This document shows, piece by piece, positions 4,168 to 32,000 of a DNA stretch of 32,000 bases. The translations under genes were made by a program, and so were the position numbers. The number at the start of each line of letters is the position of its first letter. Positions within the stretch are counted from its first letter, which is position 1. The notes under the pieces were generated by a model. It was not told the origin of the DNA, did no database searches, and was given only the letters and a program-made list of their open reading frames with translations. This DNA comes from Geobacter metallireducens GS-15. GTDB taxonomy: Bacteria > Desulfobacterota > Desulfuromonadia > Geobacterales > Geobacteraceae. The DNA is taken from assembly GCF_000012925.1 (NCBI RefSeq), contig NC_007517.1, forward strand, positions 2,880,001 to 2,912,000, written 5' to 3'.

Positions 4168-4952
4168 GTCGTTGTTGTTTCCGTGTGATTGTTAGTGGTG
4201 TACCTGAACAGTGAACGGTCCGTCGGTGTCAGAAACTCGCGTATTTCCGGTGTATCGCACCGCCTCATCTCCTCTTCCGTCCCCTCGAAGGCGAGCCGGG
4301 CATGGTGGAGGAACGAAAACCTCCGGGAAACGGCAAAGGCGGTCTCCAGGTCGTGGGTCACCATGAGGGTGGTCTTCCCCTCCCCCTGGAGTCGGAGCAT
4401 CAGGTGCCGGATGTTGTAGACCCCGACGGGGTCGAGGCCGGTGGTGGGCTCGTCGAAAAAGATGTACTCCGGCTCCGCCGCCAACCCCCGGGCAATGGCG
4501 ACCCGTTTCTTCATACCGCCGGAGAGCTCGGCCGGATAGAGGTCGATGGTCTGTTCGAGCCCCACGAAGGAGAGCTTTTCGAGCACGATCCGCTCGATTT
4601 CCTTCTCGGAAAGACGCCCCTCCTCGAAGAGGCGGTACCCCACGTTTTCCCCCACGGTCATGGAGTCGAAGAGGGCCCCCCCCTGGAAGACGATAGCGAT
4701 CTTCTTCCTGACCTGGATCAGTTGCCGCTCCCGCATCCCGCAGATGGAGACGCCGTCGATGGAGATGGTTCCACCATCGGGCTTCAATAGCCCCAGCATG
4801 AGCCTCAGGATGGTGGTCTTCCCGGCCCCGCTCATGCCGAGGATGGTCCGGTTCACCCCCGGCTCCAGAAAGAGGTCGAAGCGGTCGAGGATCGTGCGTC
4901 CCCCCACCGCGTAGGAAACCTGGTCCATCCGTATGCCACGTTCGACAGTCAC
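4164..4952 (-). CDS. mlaF: ABC transporter ATP-binding protein (MlaF-like)
   Basis: Walker A GMSGAGKTT, signature LSGGMKKRV, Walker B IFFDEPTTGLD and H-loop VTHD. GTG start at 4952 preceded by AGGTGA. Confidence 0.9.
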   Translation of the reverse strand: MTVERGIRMDQVSYAVGGRTILDRFDLFLEPGVNRTILGMSGAGKTTILRLMLGLLKPDGGTISIDGVSICGMRERQLIQVRKKIAIVFQGGALFDSMTVGENVGYRLFEEGRLSEKEIERIVLEKLSFVGLEQTIDLYPAELSGGMKKRVAIARGLAAEPEYIFFDEPTTGLDPVGVYNIRHLMLRLQGEGKTTLMVTHDLETAFAVSRRFSFLHHARLAFEGTEEEMRRCDTPEIREFLTPTDRSLFRYTTNNHTETTTT

Positions 4953-5718: not shown

Positions 5719-8039
5719 ACCGGTTGCAGCACCACCTGAACCGCCTCGCGCACGTCATCCACAAAGACGAAGGCGATCTCCCCCTTCACGTCGTCGGGGA
5801 TGTCCTCCAGGTTCTCCCGGTTACGGGCAGGGGCCACCACAGTCTTCACCCCGGCGCGCCGGGCCGCCAGCACCTTCTCCTTGAGCCCGCCGATGGCCAG
5901 GACCCGCCCCGTGAGGCTGATCTCGCCGGTCATGGCCACGTCGCGGCGGGCCGGCCGCACCGACAGGAGCGACACGATGGCGATCACCATGGTGATCCCC
6001 GCCGACGGCCCATCCTTGGGGATGGCGCCGGCCGGCACGTGGATGTGGATATCGGTGTCGGCGAAGGCGGTCTCGCCCACCCCCCACTCGGCGCCATTGG
6101 CCCGCACGAAGGAGAGGGCCGCCCGGGCCGATTCCTTCATGACATCCCCCAGGGAACCGGTGAGGATCAGCTCCCCCTTCCCCTTCATCCGGGTTGCCTC
6201 CACGAAGATGATGTCGCCGCCGGTCTCGGTCCAGGCAAGCCCCGTGACGACCCCCACCCGGTCCTTCTCCGAGGCCACCTCGTTGAAGAAGGTCCGGGGG
6301 CCAAGAAACTCCTCCACCACCGCCGGGGTGATGGTTTCCCGCAGTGGCTTCCCCTGGGTGATCTCCTTGGCCACCTTGCGGCAGACCGAGGCGATGTTCC
6401 GCTGGAGGTTCCGCACCCCCGCCTCCCGGGTGTAGTCCCGGATGATCTTGAAGAGCGCCTCGTCGGCAAAGGCCGGCGGATTTTTCGCCAGACCGTTCTC
6501 CTCGACCTCCCGGGGAACCAGATAGCGGACCGCGATCTTCTCCTTCTCCTCGTCGGTGTAGCCCGAAAGCCGGATCACCTCCATCCGGTCCTTAAGGGCA
6601 GCGGGGACCGGGTCAAGCTGGTTCGCCGTGGTGATGAACATGACGTTGGAGAGATCGAAGGGGACATCCAGGTAGTGGTCGGTAAAGGTGTTGTTTTGCT
6701 CCGGGTCCAGCACCTCCAGGAGTGCGCTGGCCGGATCCCCCCGAAAGTCGAGGCCGATCTTGTCCACCTCGTCCAGCATGAAGACCGGATTGTTGGTGCC
6801 GCAGCGGTAGAGCTCCTGGATGATCCGGCCCGGGAGGGCGCCGATGTAGGTGCGGCGGTGGCCGCGGATCTCCGCCTCGTCCCGCATCCCCCCCAGGGAC
6901 ATCCGGATGAATTTCCGCCCCAGTGCCCGGGCGATGGACTTGCCGAGGCTTGTCTTCCCCACCCCCGGCGGCCCCACGAAGCAGAGGATCGGCCCCTTCA
7001 TTTTCTCCCGCAGGGTCCGGACCGCCAGGTATTCAAGGATCCGCTCCTTCACCTTCTTGAGGTTGTAGTGGTCCTCGTCCAGCACCGCCTCGGCCTTGTT
7101 GATGTCGTTATTGTCCCTGGTGGCGTTCTTCCAGGGCATGCCGGCCAGATAGTCCAGGTAAGTGCGGGCGACCGTGTACTCGGGGGAAGCGGGATTGATC
7201 CGCTCGACCCGCTTCAGTTCCTTGTCAGCGACCTTGCGCACCTCCGAGGGCATGCCGGCCGCATCGATCTTCTTCCGAAGGTCGGTCATCTCGGCGGCGC
7301 GGGTATCCTCCTCCCCCAGTTCCTCCTGGATCTGCTTCATCTGCTCCCGCAGCAGGTACTCCTTCTGGCTCTTGCCGACCCGCTTGGTCACCTCGGCCTG
7401 GACCTCCCCCTTCACCTGGAGCCGCTGCACCTCGCTCGTCAGGTGCATGTAGACCTTCTTGAGCCGCTCCAGGGGGTCGATGGTCTCCAGAAGTTGTTGC
7501 TGCTCATCCAGGGGAAGATTCACGTAGAGGGCCACGAGATCCGCCAGCCGCGCAGGGTTGTCGATGAGATCGATCATCTTCATGACATCCTCGGGGAGGG
7601 GGCGGCCGTAGGAAAGGGCAATCTTGAGGAGGGCATTGAGGCTCTGGACCAAGGCCTCGGAAACCATGGAGCGCTCCACGAACTCGTGGATCGGCTCGCA
7701 GTGGCCCTGAAGGTGATGGTTGAACTCTACCACCTCCGTCACCCGGACCCGGGCAACCCCCTCCAGGACAATCTTCGCCCCCCCTTCGGAGAGATGCTGA
7801 ATCTGGTTGACCTTGCAGAGGGTCCCGACCTCGAAAAAAGGGGGGATACCGCCGGGAGCGGCCTCATCTCGGGGGCGGACGAGGGTCACGAGCTGGTCAT
7901 CTTCCAGCATCTCCTCGAAACGGGCAAGCTCCTCGTCCTTCAGGAACAGGGGAAAAATCATGTAGGGAAAGGCCACGATCTCCCGGACGGGATAAAGCGG
8001 CACGACGGCAGGTATCGTTATCGACACGGTTTCGGACAT
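5715..8039 (-). CDS. lon: ATP-dependent Lon protease (LonA)
   Basis: 774 aa. It has a LON N-domain, AAA+ Walker A GPPGVGKTS, Walker B FMLDEVDK, and a protease domain with PKDGPSAG and a downstream Lys. Confidence 0.96.
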   Translation of the reverse strand: MSETVSITIPAVVPLYPVREIVAFPYMIFPLFLKDEELARFEEMLEDDQLVTLVRPRDEAAPGGIPPFFEVGTLCKVNQIQHLSEGGAKIVLEGVARVRVTEVVEFNHHLQGHCEPIHEFVERSMVSEALVQSLNALLKIALSYGRPLPEDVMKMIDLIDNPARLADLVALYVNLPLDEQQQLLETIDPLERLKKVYMHLTSEVQRLQVKGEVQAEVTKRVGKSQKEYLLREQMKQIQEELGEEDTRAAEMTDLRKKIDAAGMPSEVRKVADKELKRVERINPASPEYTVARTYLDYLAGMPWKNATRDNNDINKAEAVLDEDHYNLKKVKERILEYLAVRTLREKMKGPILCFVGPPGVGKTSLGKSIARALGRKFIRMSLGGMRDEAEIRGHRRTYIGALPGRIIQELYRCGTNNPVFMLDEVDKIGLDFRGDPASALLEVLDPEQNNTFTDHYLDVPFDLSNVMFITTANQLDPVPAALKDRMEVIRLSGYTDEEKEKIAVRYLVPREVEENGLAKNPPAFADEALFKIIRDYTREAGVRNLQRNIASVCRKVAKEITQGKPLRETITPAVVEEFLGPRTFFNEVASEKDRVGVVTGLAWTETGGDIIFVEATRMKGKGELILTGSLGDVMKESARAALSFVRANGAEWGVGETAFADTDIHIHVPAGAIPKDGPSAGITMVIAIVSLLSVRPARRDVAMTGEISLTGRVLAIGGLKEKVLAARRAGVKTVVAPARNRENLEDIPDDVKGEIAFVFVDDVREAVQVVLQPV

Positions 8040-8175: not shown

Positions 8176-10101
8176 CTACCCCTCGGCACCGACGGTTTCC
8201 CACTCCTCATACAATCCGGCAATCCGTGCCGTCAGGGCGGCGTGCTCTTCCCCACCCTGCCGGGCCGCTTCCAGATCCTGAAAGAAGGCGGGGTCGGCCA
8301 TCCGCGCCTCCAACTCGGCAAGACGCTCCTCCTCCGCGGCGATGGCCGTCTCCAGCTCTTCCAGCCGCTTCTGGCGCCGCTTCTCGTCCCGCTGACGGGA
8401 CTTCTCCTCCTCCCGCTGGCGCAGCCGCTCTTCTTTTGATTCCGGCACGGAATCCGGGACCGGGGACCGGGGACCGGGGACCGGGGAAATCTGACCATCA
8501 ACCGCGGCCTTCTTCTGGAGATAGTACTCGTAGTCGCCGTGGTAGCTGGTGAGCTGCCCCCCTGCCACCTCCACCACCCGGGTGGCGAGGCCGTCGATGA
8601 AGTAGCGGTCGTGGGAGACGAAGACCACAGTGCCGGGGAAGGTCTTGAGGGCGTCCAGGAGCACGTCCTTGCTGAAGAGGTCCAGGTGGTTGGTGGGCTC
8701 ATCCATGAGGAGCAGGTTCGAAGGGCGCAGGAGCATCTTGGCCAGGGCCAGGCGGTTCCGTTCACCCCCCGAGAGGACCGCCACCTTCTTGTGGATGTCG
8801 TCCCCGGAGAAGAGGAAGGCGCCGAGGATGTCCCGCAGCTGCGGCACCATGGCAAAGGGGGCGTCGGCAAGGAGCTCGTCGTGGACGCTCTTGTCGCTGT
8901 CGAGAACCTGGGCCTGGTCCTGGGCAAAGTAGTCGAGGGCCACGTTGTGCCCCACGATCCGCTCGCCTCCCTCGAAGGGTTTTCCCGCCATAATTCCCAT
9001 GAGGGTTGACTTGCCGGCGCCGTTGTGCCCCACCAGGGCGATCCGCTCCCCCTTCTCCACGGTGAGATCAACGCCGTTCAGGACCACGTTGGGGCCGTAG
9101 GCCTTCACCACGCCGGCAAGCTCCATGGCGATCCGGCCGCTGGCCGGGGGATCGGGGAACCGGAAGCGGATTTTCTTGCGCTCCGGAGGGAGGACGATCC
9201 GCTCGATCTTCTCCAGTTGCTTGATACGGGACTGGACCAGGGACGCCTTGTCGGCCTTGTAGCGGAACCGGCTGATGAAGTCCTCGATCTTCTGGACCTC
9301 CTCGTCCTGGCGCCGCTTCGCCTCCCGCAGGGCCGCCACCCGCTCCTCCCGCTGGACCAGATAGCGGCTGTAGGAGCAGTGGTAGTCGGTGAGGACGCTG
9401 TTCCAGACCTCGGTGATCCGGTGGCAGACCTGGTCCATGAAGAAGCGGTCATGGGAGACGAGAATCACCGAGTGGGGATACTCGCACAGGTACCCCTCCA
9501 GCCAGTTGCGGGCCTCGATGTCCAGGTGGTTGGTGGGCTCGTCCAGCAGGAGCACGTTGGGCTTTTTCAGGAGGAGCTTGGCCAGAGCGATCCGCATCTG
9601 CCACCCGCCGGAGAACTCGCCGCAGTCGCGCCCCCGGTCAGCGGGGAGAAAGCCGAGGCCGTCCAGCACCCGGCATGCCTCCGCCTCCATGGCGTAGCCA
9701 CCCCGCAGCCGGAACTCCTCCTGGAGGTGCCCGTAACGATCAAGAAGCGCACCGTGCTCCGGGTCATCGTGGGGAATTTCCTCAAGGCGCCGGGTAAGGT
9801 CGGCCAGTTCCCGTTCCATCCGCTGGAGGTCGTCCAGGGCCGTCATCACCTCGGCCAGAAGCGGCCTTCCGCGGGTGACGATGCCGTCCTGGGGGAGGTA
9901 GCCGACCGTGGCACCCTTGGCGAAGATCATCTCGCCGGCCGAATGCTCCACGAGCCCGGCGACGATTTTCATGAGGGTCGACTTGCCGGCGCCGTTCTCC
10001 CCCACGAGGCCTACCCGCTCACCCTTTTTCAGGTGCCAGTTGATGCCGGTGAAGAGCGGCCTTCCCGCGAAGTCCTTGGAGAGGTTCTTGAGATGGAGCA
10101 T
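8176..10101 (-). CDS. ABC-F family ATPase (Uup/YheS-like, two ABC domains, charged C-terminal extension)
   Basis: Two Walker A motifs (GENGAGKST, GHNGAGKST), two LSGG signatures and two Walker B motifs (LLLDEPTNHLD, LLMDEPTNHLD), with no TM domain. I place the start at the ATG at 10101 (MLHLKNLSKDF), not the track start at 10149. Confidence 0.9.
   Translation of the reverse strand: MLHLKNLSKDFAGRPLFTGINWHLKKGERVGLVGENGAGKSTLMKIVAGLVEHSAGEMIFAKGATVGYLPQDGIVTRGRPLLAEVMTALDDLQRMERELADLTRRLEEIPHDDPEHGALLDRYGHLQEEFRLRGGYAMEAEACRVLDGLGFLPADRGRDCGEFSGGWQMRIALAKLLLKKPNVLLLDEPTNHLDIEARNWLEGYLCEYPHSVILVSHDRFFMDQVCHRITEVWNSVLTDYHCSYSRYLVQREERVAALREAKRRQDEEVQKIEDFISRFRYKADKASLVQSRIKQLEKIERIVLPPERKKIRFRFPDPPASGRIAMELAGVVKAYGPNVVLNGVDLTVEKGERIALVGHNGAGKSTLMGIMAGKPFEGGERIVGHNVALDYFAQDQAQVLDSDKSVHDELLADAPFAMVPQLRDILGAFLFSGDDIHKKVAVLSGGERNRLALAKMLLRPSNLLLMDEPTNHLDLFSKDVLLDALKTFPGTVVFVSHDRYFIDGLATRVVEVAGGQLTSYHGDYEYYLQKKAAVDGQISPVPGPRSPVPDSVPESKEERLRQREEEKSRQRDEKRRQKRLEELETAIAAEEERLAELEARMADPAFFQDLEAARQGGEEHAALTARIAGLYEEWETVGAEG
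8454..8488. repeat. Five tandem heptamers CCGGGAC CGGGGAC CGGGGAC CGGGGAC CGGGGAA inside the ABC-F coding region
   Basis: Read directly. On the coding (minus) strand it encodes ..SPVPGPRSPVPDS.. between the second ABC domain and the charged tail. Confidence 0.95.
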
Positions 10102-27725: not shown

Positions 27726-28700
27726 ATGCTCAACCCCCTGGCCATCGGCCCCCTGACCCTGGCAAACAATCTGATCCTCGCCCCCATGGCGGGAATTACG
27801 AACCTCCCCTTCCGGCTTCTGGCCCGGGAGGAGGGGGCGAGCCTCTGCTTTACCGAGATGGTGAGCGTGAACGGCCTCGTGCGGGAGGGGCGCAAGACCT
27901 TCGAGCTTCTGCGAAGCGTGCCGGAGGACCGTCCCCTGGGGATCCAGCTCTTCGGCGACGACCCGCAGCTTCTGGCCGAAGGGGCACGGATGGTGGAGGG
28001 GCACGGCGACCTCATCGACATCAACATGGGATGCCCGGTCAAGAAGGTGGTCGGCACCGGGGCCGGCAGCGCCCTGTTGCGGGAGCCGGCAAAGGTCCGG
28101 GCCATCATCCGTGAGACCCGCCGCGCCACACGCCTTCCCCTGACCGTCAAGATCCGCAGCGGCTGGGCCTGCGGCGAGGCCAACTTCCTTGATATCGCCC
28201 AGATTGCCGAGGAGGAGGGGTGCGACGCCATCACCCTCCACCCCCGGAGCCGGTCCCAGATGTTCGAGGGGCACGCCGACTGGCAGCAGATCGCCGAGAT
28301 GAAGCAGAGCGTGAAAATCCCCGTCATCGGCAGCGGCGATCTCTTCACCGCCGCCGACGTCACCGCCATGCTGGCCGAAACCGGCTGCGACGGAGTCATG
28401 GTGGCCCGGGGCGCCCTGGGTAACCCGTGGATCTTCCGCCAGGCCCTGGCCCTCCTGGACGGCAGGGAACCGGACGCACCCTCCACCGGGGAGCGGCTCC
28501 GCGCCGCGCTCCGACACCTGGAGCTCTTCACGGAGCTCGCCGGCGAGCGGGTGGCCCTGCGGGAGATGCGCAAGCACTTCAGCTGGTATTCCCACGGTCT
28601 CTCCGGCGCGGCCCAGTTCCGCAAGGCCGTCAACATCATCGAGGGAAAGGAAGCCCTTCTCGAAGCGCTGCACCGCTTCTTCGCGCCGGAGGCGCCATGA
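27726..28700 (+). CDS. dusB: tRNA-dihydrouridine synthase (DusB-like)
   Basis: LAPMAGITNLPFR.., MGCPVKKV and a TIM-barrel Dus family pattern. Its stop overlaps the kinase ATG (ATGA at 28697-28700). Confidence 0.92.
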   Translation: MLNPLAIGPLTLANNLILAPMAGITNLPFRLLAREEGASLCFTEMVSVNGLVREGRKTFELLRSVPEDRPLGIQLFGDDPQLLAEGARMVEGHGDLIDINMGCPVKKVVGTGAGSALLREPAKVRAIIRETRRATRLPLTVKIRSGWACGEANFLDIAQIAEEEGCDAITLHPRSRSQMFEGHADWQQIAEMKQSVKIPVIGSGDLFTAADVTAMLAETGCDGVMVARGALGNPWIFRQALALLDGREPDAPSTGERLRAALRHLELFTELAGERVALREMRKHFSWYSHGLSGAAQFRKAVNIIEGKEALLEALHRFFAPEAP

Positions 28701-29788
28701 GCCCGGAAAGCCCCAACGAAGCGTTCCTTGCCACCATCATCGACAGCGTCGGCGACGGGGTCATCGTCATCGACCTGGGGGGGCGGATCACCCTCATGAA
28801 CCCTGCGGCCGAGGAGATCATCGCCATCTCCCGGCGCCAGGCCATGGGGCACCCCTTCGCGGCCCTCCTCGGCAGTCAGGAGATTCTGGTGGATATGGTC
28901 GCCAAGACCGCCGCCACCGGCATGACCATCTCCGACAACGAGAACATCGTCATCAGGAAGGCGAAGCAGCTTACCCCGGTCGCGGTCACCACGTTTCCGC
29001 TCCTGCGGCAGGACGGCGAGCCCATCGGCACCATCCTCATGCTGCGGGACCTGACGAACATCCGGGAACTGGAAGATGCGGTCCGCCACGCCGACCGGCT
29101 CTCCACCCTCGGCACCCTGGCGGCGGGCCTGGCCCACGAGATCAAGAACCCTCTGGGGGGGATCAAGGGGGCGGCCCAGCTTCTGGAAATGGAGCTCCCC
29201 CCCGAGAGCGAACTGCGGGACAACGTCCGGGTCGTGGTCAGGGAGGTGGACCGGGTCAACCGGATCGTGGAGGAGCTCCTGGCACTCTCATCGCCCCGCA
29301 AGCTCCAACTCACCAAGGTGAACCTCCACAAGATCCTCGGCGACATTGTCACTCTCAGGAAACGGGCCACGGAAGGGAAGTCCGTCACGTTCCAGCAGCA
29401 GTTCGACCCGAGCATCCCGCCGATCCTGGCCGACGAGGGGCTCCTGACCCAGCTCTTCCTGAACCTGATCAAGAACGCCGTGGAGGCGGTGGACGAGCGG
29501 GGCACCATCCGGGTCGCGAGCCGGGTCCTCTCCGACTACAGCATGACCCCGAAGGGGGAGCGCCGCTCCCGCATGGTGGCCGTCGATGTCCGCGACGACG
29601 GCCCCGGTATCCCCAGGGAGCAACTGGAGCAGCTCTTCACCCCCTTCTTCACCACCAAGGCCAAGGGGACCGGACTCGGCCTCGCCATCTGCCAGAAGAT
29701 CGTCACAGAGCACCGGGGCATGCTCAAGGTGGAATCGGACCCGGGCACGGGGACGACGTTCACGGTGATGCTGCCGTTAATTCAGTAA
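28697..29788 (+). CDS. NtrB-type sensor histidine kinase (PAS, HisKA, HATPase_c), cytoplasmic
   Basis: PAS-like N-terminus (IIDSVGDGVIVIDLGGRITLMNPAAEE), H-box LAHEIKNPLGGI, N-box LNLIKNAVEA, G1 DDGPGI and G2 GTGLGLAI. I place the start at the ATG at 28697, coupled to dusB, not at the track start 28427. Confidence 0.9.
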   Translation: MSPESPNEAFLATIIDSVGDGVIVIDLGGRITLMNPAAEEIIAISRRQAMGHPFAALLGSQEILVDMVAKTAATGMTISDNENIVIRKAKQLTPVAVTTFPLLRQDGEPIGTILMLRDLTNIRELEDAVRHADRLSTLGTLAAGLAHEIKNPLGGIKGAAQLLEMELPPESELRDNVRVVVREVDRVNRIVEELLALSSPRKLQLTKVNLHKILGDIVTLRKRATEGKSVTFQQQFDPSIPPILADEGLLTQLFLNLIKNAVEAVDERGTIRVASRVLSDYSMTPKGERRSRMVAVDVRDDGPGIPREQLEQLFTPFFTTKAKGTGLGLAICQKIVTEHRGMLKVESDPGTGTTFTVMLPLIQ

Positions 29789-29789
29789 C

Positions 29790-29867
29790 CAGGGACCAGG
29801 AACCGGGGACCAGTGGAATCAAAGTCAAGCGACTTTCGGTTTTACCGGTCCCCGGTCCCCGGTCCCG
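29790..29867. repeat. Inverted heptamer-array element, copy A: (CNGGRAC)x4, 29-nt spacer, (GGTCCCC)x3
   Basis: Left arm at 29790-29817 and right arm at 29847-29867. 20 of 24 aligned positions are complementary. The spacer holds the mini-hairpin AAAGTC-aagc-GACTTT. Confidence 0.9.
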
Positions 29868-29885
29868 GATTTCCGAGGTTTTATC

Positions 29886-31328
29886 ATGTTATTGCACCGC
29901 ATACTCGTAGCCGACGACGAAGAAAGCATGCGCTGGGTCCTCTCCAAGGCCCTGCGGAAAAAGGGATTTTCCGTGGATCTCGCCCGGGACGGCGAAGAGG
30001 CCCTGCGCCTCATCCAGTCCGGCGACTATGATCTGGCGATCCTTGACATCAAGATGCCCGGCATTTCGGGGCTCGACCTCCTGGACCGGGTGAAGGAGCT
30101 GAAGAGCGACCTCCTCATGGTGATCATGACCGCCGAGGCAAGCATGAAGAACGCCGTGGAGGCCATGAAGCGCGGCGCCTACGACTACATCACCAAGCCC
30201 TTCGACCTGGACGTGATCGACGCCATCATCGAGAAGGTGAACCGGGCCAGGGAGATCACCTCCCAGATGTCGATCCTCCGGGAGGAACTGAAGGACCGCT
30301 ATCTCCTGGAGAAGAACATCGTCGGTAACTCCCCGGCCATGCGGGAGGTCTACAAGACCATCGGCAAGGTGGCTCCCAGCGACGTAACGGTGCTGGTGCA
30401 GGGGGAGTCGGGGACCGGCAAGGAGCTCATCGCCCGGGCCATCCATTTCAACTCCAAACGGATCGGCAAGCCGTTCATTGCCCTCAACTGCGCAGCGATC
30501 CCCAAGGAACTCCTGGAGAGCGAGCTCTTCGGCTTCGAGAAGGGGGCCTTCACCGGCGCCGCGGAGCGCAAACTCGGCAAGTTCGAGCAGGCCAACGGCG
30601 GCACTATCTTCCTGGACGAGATCGGCGACATGCCCCTGGACCTCCAGGCGAAGATCCTGCGGGTCCTCCAGGAGAAGGAGGTGACCCGCACCGGTGGGAG
30701 CCAGAACATCGCCGTGGACGTGCGGATCGTGGCGGCCACCAACCAGAACCTGGAGGAACTGGCCCGGAACAAACAGTTCCGGGAAGACCTCTACTACCGC
30801 CTGAACGTGGTGCCCATCCAGCTGGTGCCGCTGCGGGAGCGCAAGGAGGACATCCCGGCCCTGGTGGAGTACTTCCTCCACAAGACCTGTGCCGAACTGG
30901 AGGTCCCCGGCAGGACCTGCTCCCCCGAGACCATGGCGCTCCTCACCGCCTACTCCTGGCCCGGCAACGTGCGGGAGCTGGAGAACACCATCAAAAGGGC
31001 CGTGATCCTCTCCTCCGACCCGCTCCTCACGCCGGCAGACTTTCCGGGGCTCCGCATCCAGCGCACCGGCGAGGCCGTCGCCACCGACGAGCTGTCGCTT
31101 GAGGCCCTGGTGGACATGAAGCTGCGGGCGAGCCTCACCAATCTCGACAAGATGGAGACCGGCGACATCTACAACCTGGTCCTCAAACAGATCGAACGCC
31201 CCCTCATCCGCTTCGTCCTGGAAAAGACCCGGGGGAACCAAGTGAAGGGCGCCGAAATCCTCGGCATCAACCGGAACACACTCCGGAAGAAGATCCAGGA
31301 ACTGGGCATCGAAATCAGGAGAGACTGA
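29886..31328 (+). CDS. Sigma54-dependent response regulator (NtrC family: REC, AAA+ with GAFTGA, Fis-type HTH)
   Basis: REC with the phospho-acceptor context DLAILDIKMPG. AAA+ with GESGTGKE, GAFTGA and FLDEIGDM. C-terminal HTH NQVKGAEILGINRNTLRKKI. Confidence 0.93.
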   Translation: MLLHRILVADDEESMRWVLSKALRKKGFSVDLARDGEEALRLIQSGDYDLAILDIKMPGISGLDLLDRVKELKSDLLMVIMTAEASMKNAVEAMKRGAYDYITKPFDLDVIDAIIEKVNRAREITSQMSILREELKDRYLLEKNIVGNSPAMREVYKTIGKVAPSDVTVLVQGESGTGKELIARAIHFNSKRIGKPFIALNCAAIPKELLESELFGFEKGAFTGAAERKLGKFEQANGGTIFLDEIGDMPLDLQAKILRVLQEKEVTRTGGSQNIAVDVRIVAATNQNLEELARNKQFREDLYYRLNVVPIQLVPLRERKEDIPALVEYFLHKTCAELEVPGRTCSPETMALLTAYSWPGNVRELENTIKRAVILSSDPLLTPADFPGLRIQRTGEAVATDELSLEALVDMKLRASLTNLDKMETGDIYNLVLKQIERPLIRFVLEKTRGNQVKGAEILGINRNTLRKKIQELGIEIRRD

Positions 31329-31331
31329 AAG

Positions 31332-31458
31332 CCGGGACCGGGGATCAGGGACCGGGGATCAGGAAAAATCAAAAACAGCAACAAGCGAATCGGTACCATG
31401 GCCATCTACGGAGCATTACCGGGTTTTCCCGGTCCCTGGTCCCCGGTCCCCGGTCCCG
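31332..31458. repeat. Inverted heptamer-array element, copy B: (CNGGGAY)x5, 64-nt spacer, (GGTCCCN)x4
   Basis: Left arm at 31332-31366 (CCGGGAC CGGGGAT CAGGGAC CGGGGAT CAGGAAA). Right arm at 31431-31458 (GGTCCCT GGTCCCC GGTCCCC GGTCCCG). About 26 of 31 positions are complementary. The spacer ends are homologous to copy A. Confidence 0.9.
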
Positions 31459-31485
31459 AATTCCGACTGAAAGGAGGAATTACCA

Positions 31486-32000
31486 ATGGGCATCATGGAC
31501 ACGTTTTTTCTCGACCGGAACCAGGCGGTACTCGTCGTCGTGGACGTGCAGGAGAAGCTCTGCGCGGCCATGAACCAGGAGGTCCTGGCACAACTCACGA
31601 AGAACACCGGCATCCTCCTGGAGGCCGCGAAGGAGCTCGGCATCCCGGTGGTGGCCACGGAGCAGTACGTGAAGGGTCTCGGCTGCACCGTGCCGGAGCT
31701 GCGGCAACAGTTCGAGGGAGCAGCCTTCGAGAAGATGGCCTTCAGCTGCTGCGGCGATGAGGCCTTCCTGAACCGGTTGGCGGAGCTGGGGCGGAAGCAG
31801 GTGATCGTCACCGGCATGGAGACCCACGTCTGCGTCCTCCAGACGATCCTGGAGCTCCGGGAGCGGGGATATCACGTCCACCTGGTGAAGGATGCGGTCA
31901 TGAGTCGCAAAAAAGGGAACTGGAAGGTGGGGGTCAACGCCGCAGCAGCGGCCGGCGCGGCCATCACCTCCACCGAGGCGGCCCTGTTCCAGCTCCTGCG
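31486..32000 (+). CDS. Isochorismatase-family hydrolase (partial, continues past the window end)
   Basis: Missing from the ORF track because it runs off the edge. My translation from the ATG at 31486, behind SD AAGGAGG, reads MGIMDTFFLDRNQAVLVVVDVQEKLCAAM...EKMAFSCC...VIVTGMETHVCVLQTILEL.. This shows the D/K/C triad pattern of the cysteine-hydrolase family. Confidence 0.85.
   Translation, partial: MGIMDTFFLDRNQAVLVVVDVQEKLCAAMNQEVLAQLTKNTGILLEAAKELGIPVVATEQYVKGLGCTVPELRQQFEGAAFEKMAFSCCGDEAFLNRLAELGRKQVIVTGMETHVCVLQTILELRERGYHVHLVKDAVMSRKKGNWKVGVNAAAAAGAAITSTEAALFQLL

Follow-up and report, generated by a model that had tools for sequence, protein, structure and literature searches.

The analyzed window, i.e., the whole 32,000-nt stretch of DNA, corresponds to positions 2,880,001–2,912,000 of the Geobacter metallireducens GS-15 chromosome; the published coordinates and sequences of the elements Gmet_H424–H428 fit it at an offset of exactly 2,880,000. 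Here we consider copy B, an inverted pair of heptamer arrays between gnfM, encoding a sigma-54-dependent response regulator, and a hydrolase gene, together with its relatives, in particular copy A in front of gnfM. An earlier note, made from the sequence alone, had described copy B as such an element, and had linked it to a competition between a hairpin and a G-quadruplex (G4) and to binding of the adjacent NtrC-type regulator. GnfL and GnfM form the master two-component system for nitrogen-fixation genes and GnfM is essential in G. sulfurreducens (Ueki and Lovley, 2010). The locus contains the following genes and features (window coordinates; ORF, open reading frame):

28427–29788, plus strand: sensor histidine kinase gene (Gmet_2562, GnfL-type), from the ORF list, Table S4 of Aklujkar et al. 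(2009), and orthologues with PAS/HisKA/HATPase_c domains; as the orthologues have 363 aa, the true start is probably near 28697
29886–31328, plus strand: gnfM (Gmet_2563), response regulator of nitrogen-fixation genes, from the ORF and orthologues (GnfM/NtrC, 91–98% identical)
31323–31331, plus strand: left 9-bp target-site duplication GACTGAAAG, including the gnfM stop codon TGA at 31326–31328
31332–31464, no strand assigned: copy B proper (Gmet_H427 + Gmet_H428), a 133-nt insertion delimited by empty sites in relatives (see also Fig S2 and Table S4 of Aklujkar et al., 2009)
31334–31361, plus strand: left G-rich arm, four heptamers (GGGACCG, GGGATCA, GGGACCG, GGGATCA), from repeat finders
31368–31423, no strand assigned: loop, or spacer, with ends resembling those of the copy A spacer and no promoter-like or terminator-like site
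31428–31457, plus strand: C-rich arm on the right, CCCGGTC x4.3, with the heptamer array in reverse complement, from repeat finders
31465–31473, plus strand: right target-site duplication GACTGAAAG, re-creating the ribosome-binding site GGAGG (31473–31477) of the hydrolase gene

Insertion of copy B between gnfM and the hydrolase gene

The left arm of copy B is a 14-nt unit GGGACCGGGGATCA present in two 100% identical copies (31334–31361), i.e., the duplicated 14-mer of the earlier note in another register. The best inverted repeat pairs 31333–31367 with 31424–31458 (35-nt arms, 86% complementary, 56 nt apart). The orientation is convergent, four units facing four, with the G-rich arm first, and both flanking genes are co-directional. 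The first heptamer, and with it the hairpin, starts 5 nt past the gnfM stop codon, and the ATG of the next gene at 31486 lies ~27 nt beyond the right arm, the same distance as given in the note. The element, 133 nt in total, is non-coding and contains no ORF. Allowing up to one mismatch, the window contains 15 occurrences of GGGACCGGGGA vs. 2.5 ± 1.6 in shuffles, with 0 of 100 shuffles reaching 15; repeat finders, shuffles, and the fold described below (z −5.95) agree that the inverted array after the regulator gene is real.

The site was compared with five orthologous loci, L121 and L122 (GnfM 98% identical), L123 (96%), L124 (91%), and L125 (G. sulfurreducens type), where the spacer between gnfM and the hydrolase gene is 15–40 nt long vs. 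157 nt in GS-15. The empty site reads ...GGGACTGAAAGGAGGGTTCACCAGATG in L121 and L122 and ...AAGACTGAAAGGAGGGAGCATCTGATG in L125; the filled site of GS-15 reads ...GAGACTGAAAG[133 nt]GACTGAAAGGAGGAATTACCAATG. The 9-mer GACTGAAAG is present once in L121, L122, and L125, with GAGG..ATG straight after it, and on both sides of the insert in GS-15; the window has just two occurrences of it, at 31323 and 31465. Flanking direct repeats of at least 9 nt have a null frequency of 0.15%, as estimated from mismatched flank pairs. Judged from these alignments, the comparison shows that copy B entered as one unit, exactly in the gap that separates the gnfM stop codon from the hydrolase gene's ribosome-binding site, with 9 bp of target duplicated, and that it did so after the split from the relatives with 98% identical GnfM. 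Empty sites together with a 9-bp duplication are the signature of staggered-cut insertion, i.e., transposition, and hence at least one copy has moved recently.

Copy B itself is not new, being in the literature since 2009 as Gmet_H427/H428; copy A is Gmet_H425/H426, and the array at 8456 is Gmet_H424. The Gmet_H4## series comprises a G+C-rich element, built of four GGGACCG repeats in tandem, that is found at 49 sites within and between genes of G. metallireducens; its single 45-nt arms were listed as "predicted regulatory RNA elements", with a regulatory role as "global regulatory elements" proposed (Aklujkar et al., 2009, BMC Microbiol 9:109, PMC2700814). Both arms of copy B appear in Fig S2 and Table S4 of that paper, and the repeat finders concur with this assignment. 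The remaining 44 GS-15 arms were taken from its supplementary table, in which one alignment column is missing. The window positions are:

8448–8492: Gmet_H424, within the ABC ATPase gene Gmet_2545 (Fig S2, Table S4)
8456–8487, plus strand: the solo array of Gmet_H424 itself, GGGACCG x4.6, inside the minus-strand ABC-F ATPase gene (repeat finders; Aklujkar et al., 2009)
29777–29821 and 29837–29881: Gmet_H425 and Gmet_H426 (copy A), between the kinase gene Gmet_2562 and the regulator gene Gmet_2563 (Table S4)
29789–29876, no strand assigned: copy A as a heptamer-armed hairpin directly after the kinase stop codon, arms at ~29789–29813 and ~29845–29868
31326–31370, plus strand: Gmet_H427 (chromosome 2911326–2911370), 3' of Gmet_2563 (Table S4)
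31421–31465, minus strand: Gmet_H428 (chromosome 2911421–2911465), 5' of Gmet_2564 (Table S4)

No Rfam family reaches its gathering score in the window or in 10 related loci; in the E-value mode, the search yields just chance look-alikes of microRNA hairpins, far below the threshold.

Copy A, the solo array, and the wider family

The inverted repeat of copy A has arms at 29782–29823 and 29835–29876 (repeat finders; 74% complementary). As the earlier note stated, copies A and B bracket a single gene, the ORF 29886..31328, and share their spacer ends, ATCAAA..CAAGCGA..CGG and GGTTTT(A/C)CC, the middle of the spacer being ~30 nt longer in B; copy A apart, the spacer of copy B shows no similarity to spacers of other family members. 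Copy A is the older and more degenerate of the two. At the copy A site (window 29789–29885), the element is kept in L123, with a decayed right arm, and is replaced by other sequence in L121, L122, L124, and L125. The content of this kinase–regulator spacer (L121, 2962–3001; L123, 2904–3001; L124, 2906–3001; L125, 2945–3001) varies: GGGACCR arms are seen in GS-15 and L123; a different inverted heptamer element with GGGGCTG/GGGACTC arms and another loop in L124; 28 nt including CCTTCAG x2 in L121 and L122; and unrelated sequence with no heptamers in L125.

The solo array Gmet_H424 falls into the linker of the ABC-F ATPase that joins its second ABC domain to the C-terminal coiled coil, and is translated as ISPVPGPRSPVPDS (..SPVPGPRSPVP..). 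Among the compared ABC-F orthologues this linker is hypervariable, and since several of them already contain SPVPGPRS-like motifs, the array or its remnants seem to be old at that site. Another repeat of the window, at 2798–2878, consists of GGAAGCTAATTCT x2 followed by a 33-nt unit (TAATTCTTAAGCTAATTCTGGGGACATCATACT) x2.2 in a 340-nt intergenic region between two minus-strand genes; it is probably another multicopy sequence catalogued for this genome.

Scanning the pattern GGGACCRGGGACCRGGGACC over 185,579 species genomes produced at least 120 loci, with GS-15 itself not among the matches listed. Hence, the suggestion that copies A and B are diverged members of one family is borne out, with 49 arms in GS-15 and hundreds of copies elsewhere. 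Among the matches listed, Xanthomonadales sensu lato (Xanthomonas, Pseudoxanthomonas, Stenotrophomonas, Luteimonas, Rhodanobacteraceae; from record titles) contribute ~33 loci, Acidobacteriota (Vicinamibacterales, Thermoanaerobaculia) ~32, Actinomycetota 12, Gemmatimonadota 10, Geobacterales/Desulfuromonadales and Planctomycetota six each, and Wenzhouxiangella five. Some of the actinobacterial matches look like coding repeats, e.g., with a 21-nt period in Kitasatospora: the arrays in Kitasatospora (L001, 1938–2021) and Streptomyces (L090, L096, L098, L108, L110) are long, confined to one strand, and have a 21-nt super-period. These are probably coding Gly/Pro-rich repeats and not members of the hairpin family.

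Many loci repeat the anatomy seen in the window: 3–9 nt past a stop codon come four GGGACCR units, next sequence resembling GGGAAAAG, and, beyond a spacer of 18–212 nt, the mirror image. Neighboring arrays are convergent in 45 cases vs. divergent in seven. Paired arms have four units in 49 cases, three in 15, and five in eight; solo arrays show a long tail, from 6 to 13 or more units. The distance from the stop codon to the first heptamer clusters at 3–9 nt on one or both sides in most well-called cases, the ORF caller being crude. Family members adjoin unrelated genes and also occur inside coding regions; mostly they lie between co-directional genes, not in promoter regions. On this evidence, the comparison shows a 4+4 design shared by Xanthomonadales, Acidobacteriota, Gemmatimonadota, other Geobacterales, and phage contigs.

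As for the latter, IMG/VR viral contigs L206–L239 contain 4+4 convergent GGGACCR pairs (e.g., L207, 4786–4860; L209, 1706–1767; L230, 885–989; L233, 3107–3162). Contig L209 has Geobacter-like flanks, which, together with its spacer (..AAAGGCTTTCGGTTTTCC..), resemble copy A; in L206, L220, and L222 the arms enclose a ~310-nt segment with a coding appearance. It is possible that phages served as the vehicle of spread between phyla.

Covariation between the arms was assessed for 27 paired elements, aligned in register and scored as a hairpin. Pairing is retained in 89.2% of cells vs. 84.4% in shuffles, and in at most 62% after sliding one arm by one column. Double-sided changes are seen in 15 of the 32 pairs, and 43 cells are altered on both sides vs. 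16.8 ± 3.2 in shuffles (0 of 500 reach 43); the choice of register inflates these counts, and so does the common ancestry of arms from the same genome. The arms covary, as the earlier note had proposed to test. The clearest case is Xanthomonas sp. AmX2 (L078), where two copies 1.5 kb apart (4537–4640 and 6005–6108), with 92% identical 48-nt spacers, have different arms, GGGACTC/GAGTCCC in one and GGGACCR/YGGTCCC in the other. The L078 copies flank one ~1.4-kb gene, the same layout of two copies bracketing one gene as in the window.

These data bear on the reading of the element as an inert simple-sequence repeat, with heptamers expanded in place by replication slippage and the inverted layout being incidental. 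The numbers of units do vary among strains and species in related systems (PMC4692102, PMC4990558), solo arrays extend to 6 to 13 or more units, and three different heptamer types are found at site A among close relatives; against this, copy B arrived whole, with all of its 133 nt and a target duplication, the unit count of paired arms has a sharp peak at four, the convergent orientation is strongly favored, and the arms covary. Slippage is thus an extremely improbable explanation. For the origin of copy B, it is largely refuted by the empty-site comparison.

Folding, quadruplex potential, and regulatory alternatives

If read through together with gnfM, copy B is computed to fold into a ~35-bp G+C-rich hairpin. 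The predicted RNA folds have energies of −76.2 kcal/mol (z −5.95) for copy B and −56.2 kcal/mol (z −6.17) for copy A, and the DNA fold of copy B −38 kcal/mol (z −4.9); the strong hairpin suggested by the note is thus recovered. A scan for intrinsic terminators reveals no terminator-like site at either copy, and no U-tract follows the stem, the sequence after copy B being GAAUUCCGACUG. No sigma-70 promoter is found by the scan at either copy; the −24/−12 pattern of sigma-54 promoters has no match in or beside copies A and B, its total in the window being lower than expected by chance.

The quadruplex part of the note stands only partly. Each arm of copy B has four runs of at least three G, with G4Hunter scores of +1.43 and −1.43, i.e., the G3+N1-7 motif rule holds there. 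However, the left arm of copy A scores 0.56, neither of its arms has four G3 runs, and no G4 ever appears in the predicted minimum-energy fold of copy B, which is unchanged when G4 energies are switched on. The left arm of copy B alone favors a weak hairpin, and the left arm with the spacer likewise folds with no G4. The only array here predicted to form a G4 is the solo array Gmet_H424 (−34.1 vs. −20.1 kcal/mol).

A switch would have the G-rich arm form a G4, either in the DNA strand that is displaced or in the nascent transcript, in competition with the hairpin, and tune expression of the flanking genes. It would accord with the G3+ runs in both arms of copy B, with the prediction for Gmet_H424, with four units being the preferred arm length, and with data on GGGAATC oligonucleotides, which form G4 by circular dichroism, transcript ends being enriched at G4-capable repeats (Rehm et al., 2015, PMC4692102). 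It is at odds with the arms of copy A and with the absence of G4 from the folds in favor of the −76 kcal/mol hairpin. Further, arms at PF05635 genes elsewhere (AGTGAAT, GGTTGAT, CAAGAGC, GACAGAT, and others; see below) are not G4-capable, and yet have 4–5 inverted units; as these non-G-rich arms in other taxa keep the same design, the four-unit rule is not explained by G4. We regard such a switch as quite improbable. The interpretation also re-derives a published idea, since the competition between hairpin and G4 had already been raised (Rehm et al., 2015, PMC4692102).

Another possibility is that the arrays are iteron-like sites on DNA, bound by GnfM, a nucleoid protein, or a four-helix-bundle protein. 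Regular 7-bp phasing and the fixed number of four units are in line with it; a regulatory role was proposed when the genome was described (Aklujkar et al., 2009, PMC2700814), and the recurrent neighborhood of heptamer arrays and PF05635 genes would suit a cognate binding protein. However, copy B is missing, and site A is occupied by other sequence, in relatives whose GnfM is 98% identical; family members reside beside unrelated genes, in coding regions, and between co-directional genes rather than at promoters; footprinted GnfM sites are located upstream of sigma-54 promoters (Ueki and Lovley, 2010), with no −24/−12 element near these copies; and the heptamer sequence changes between cassettes, no partner protein having been identified. 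A binding array is, therefore, about as improbable as the G4 switch. In particular, since relatives with 91–98% identical GnfM have no copy B, the element is outside the conserved GnfM circuitry, and the tie to the adjacent regulator, raised in the note, is weakened, the family being found beside unrelated genes and inside genes. Both the G4 switch and GnfM binding are poorly supported.

The hairpin might also act in the manner of repetitive extragenic palindromic (REP) elements, with no involvement of RNase III, as a barrier to 3'-to-5' exonucleases or a partial factor-dependent terminator. REP elements of E. coli stabilize upstream mRNA. Liang, Rudd and Deutscher are said to have reported in 2015 that REPs within ~15 nt of the stop codon lower translation. 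The stem of copy B, since it starts 5 nt past the stop codon, may likewise hinder terminating ribosomes and thereby lower GnfM. Strong hairpins right after stop codons and between co-directional genes would agree with such an action, as would the more frequent starts or ends of transcripts reported for repeats of this kind in Xanthomonas (Rehm et al., 2015, PMC4692102); on the other hand, there is no U-tract past the stem and no terminator in the scan, the REP-defining GTAG motif is not found, and the REP-type spread leaves no target duplication, while copy B has one. On balance, we consider a purely REP-like action unlikely, if less so than the G4 switch or the binding array.

PF05635 genes, intervening sequences, and comparison with known systems

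The only recurrent cargo between the arms in the at least 120 loci is a gene of the PF05635 family, which is not a known transposase. In two Xanthomonadaceae, X. codiaei (L024) and P. wuyuanensis (L040), a 4+4 GGGACCG pair between carA and carB has a 385-nt loop encoding a four-helix-bundle protein of 134–136 aa (TIGR02436, E 1e-33; PF05635, "23S rRNA-intervening sequence protein", E 1e-36), whose C-terminus (..SPVPGPRSRS) is encoded by the distal arm. Among the pattern loci from other phyla, the four-helix-bundle gene adjoins heptamer arrays in L094 and L095. The cassettes are:

L024, 5209–5645: four-helix-bundle cassette
L040, 6427–6866: four-helix-bundle cassette
L095, 6140–6570: four-helix-bundle cassette

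Just downstream of the latter, a metagenome-assembled genome of Methylomirabilota (L095, 6700–6790) has a double array, G-rich GGRGACG-type units directly followed by CCCCGGT x4, within the N-terminal region of an ABC-transporter ATPase ORF.

The reverse test used 80 metagenomic loci (L126–L205) encoding relatives of the PF05635 protein and a generic detector of period-7 arrays. Such arrays are present within −200 to +250 nt of the PF05635 ORF in 58 of the 80 loci, at a density of 1.59 per kb vs. 0.33 per kb elsewhere in the same loci, and are absent from shuffled sequence. In 28 loci the arrays flank the ORF on both sides, and in 27 of these they are reverse complements; of 26 pairs, 23 have the purine-rich arm upstream of the ORF. 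The arms have a median length of 33 nt (interquartile range 29–36), or ~4–5 units, and the heptamer varies by locus (GGGATTA, TAGGGTT, CGGTGAA, AGTGAAT, CAAGAGC, GGGGACT, and others). Inverted pairs of heptamer arrays thus appear to be the usual flanks of PF05635/TIGR02436 family genes. The 23S rRNA intervening sequence of Coxiella burnetii has a 28-bp terminal stem, with GACAGAT x3 and a degenerate fourth unit before the S23p ORF, and RNase III of both Coxiella and E. coli cleaves within the stem (Warrier et al., 2016, PMC4990558). No PF05635 ORF is present in copy A, copy B, or anywhere in the window, weak tblastn matches being driven by the arm-encoded SPVPGPRS. In the open-access literature, we found no paper tying heptamer arms generally to the PF05635 family, or the Geobacter and Xanthomonas repeats to intervening sequences.

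Taken together, copy B is probably a mobile hairpin similar to intervening sequences, devoid of cargo, and subject to processing within the gnfM mRNA. Its mechanism can be proposed tentatively. The stem, transcribed with gnfM, would resemble in behavior the stems of 23S rRNA intervening sequences, which consist of 28 bp of heptamer repeats; the double-strand-specific RNase III would likewise cut it. Cleavage would separate the gnfM and hydrolase cistrons, and leftover stem stubs would alter mRNA stability. The element would be mainly a passenger, selfish or neutral, whose presence is tolerated in the short stretch from the stop codon to the ribosome-binding site, and no dedicated regulator of gnfM.

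It is conceivable, and we suggest it with similar reserve, that the Gmet_H4 elements, the Xanthomonas GGGAATC pairs, the cyanobacterial heptamer repeats, and the classical 23S rRNA intervening sequences form one superfamily of mobile heptamer-armed hairpin cassettes. In its full-length form, a four-helix-bundle gene (PF05635, Avd-like) would be enclosed by a purine-rich array (~4 x 7 nt) and the reverse complement of this array, and cargo-less forms such as copy B would spread into operons, even into coding linkers, with target duplication. RNase III would process all of them at the 28–35-bp stem, and the four-helix-bundle protein may aid mobility or recognition of its own arms.

Several observations weigh against these views. 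Flanking direct repeats of at least 7 nt are absent at the other 36 paired elements, copy A included, where the mean length of the flanking repeat equals the null; transposition with target duplication is therefore demonstrated for copy B alone and cannot be generalized. No transposase or other mobilizing gene has been identified, and no transposase is seen between the arms in the at least 120 loci. No four-helix-bundle gene with GGGACCG arms turned up in Geobacter, where no aimed search was made. Cargo-less spacers have no nucleotide similarity to the four-helix-bundle cassettes, and they are unrelated to each other, except for copies A and B (in part) and the two L078 copies; the inflation of the covariation counts, mentioned above, belongs here as well. 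With spacers unlike the cassettes, a descent of copy B from a cargo-bearing form is tentative, being based on the shared arms. Deletion remnants of a four-helix-bundle cassette were considered as a source of the cargo-less spacers and rejected, as no nucleotide similarity was found.

The function and origin of heptamer repeats have been unsettled since 1990 in cyanobacteria, 2009 in Geobacter, and 2015 in Xanthomonas. Three leads may be new, i.e., the clean empty site with target duplication, the spread of the 4+4 architecture across phyla, and the association of heptamer arms with PF05635 genes, and they make this long-standing question open to experiment. If the superfamily view is true, several orphan repeat families would be united with rRNA intervening sequences, and RNase III processing sites would be predicted inside many operons, here directly behind gnfM.

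Among known systems, the Gmet_H4## elements (Aklujkar et al., 2009) are the same elements; the paper does not treat pairs as units, and, unlike the present analysis, contains neither the insertion polymorphism nor the occurrence outside G. metallireducens. The G-rich heptamer repeats, GGGAATC in Xanthomonas and GGGGA(C/T)T in Nostoc, consist of G3–4 plus 3–4 nt, with four units preferred, 70–75 convergent plus/minus pairs per Xanthomonas genome, and positions between co-directional genes no more than 50 bp away from the stop codon; they form G4 in vitro, and their function was left open (Rehm et al., 2015, PLoS One 10:e0144275, PMC4692102). Copy B is convergent, 4+4, near a stop codon, and between co-directional genes, and the family-wide statistics agree; however, its heptamer is GGGACCR, and the former repeats were regarded not as insertions but as simple-sequence repeats residing in stable loci, with no link drawn to intervening sequences or PF05635 genes. 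This class of repeats includes the cyanobacterial STRR repeats.

Similar to MITEs (miniature inverted-repeat transposable elements), copy B is small and non-coding, with 35-nt terminal inverted repeats, a 9-bp target duplication, empty sites, and a multicopy family; unlike them, its inverted repeats are tandem heptamers, the internal sequence is not conserved between copies, and the family has no known parent insertion sequence or transposase and no duplication at the 36 other copies. RAYT-mobilized REP/BIME/REPIN elements resemble it as extragenic inverted doublets with long hairpins, found 3' of genes inside operons in tens to hundreds of copies; they differ in the GTAG motif, which copy B lacks, in arms that are palindromes rather than tandem repeats, and in the target duplication, a feature not produced by RAYT-type movement. 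Rickettsia palindromic elements are palindromic repeats, restricted to Rickettsia, whose insertions also occur in coding regions, where they are translated. The same behavior is seen for Gmet_H424 in the ABC-F linker and for the "within gene" entries of Table S4, although the sequences are unrelated, the Rickettsia elements having no heptamers.

Finally, copy B differs from the 23S rRNA intervening sequences of Coxiella burnetii and Leptospira in its location, an mRNA intergenic region instead of helix 25 or 45, with no rRNA in the window, and in having no ORF and a loop of 56 nt vs. ~370–540 nt. What they have in common is the design of the stem, ~28 bp of approximately four heptamers in the intervening sequences and 35 nt with 4 x 7 nt in copy B. 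In the intervening sequences, the arm rich in purines lies before the ORF, the stem is cleaved by RNase III, the distribution is sporadic, and a mobile origin is suspected; their PF05635 family is also bracketed by GGGACCG arms in L024 and L040.

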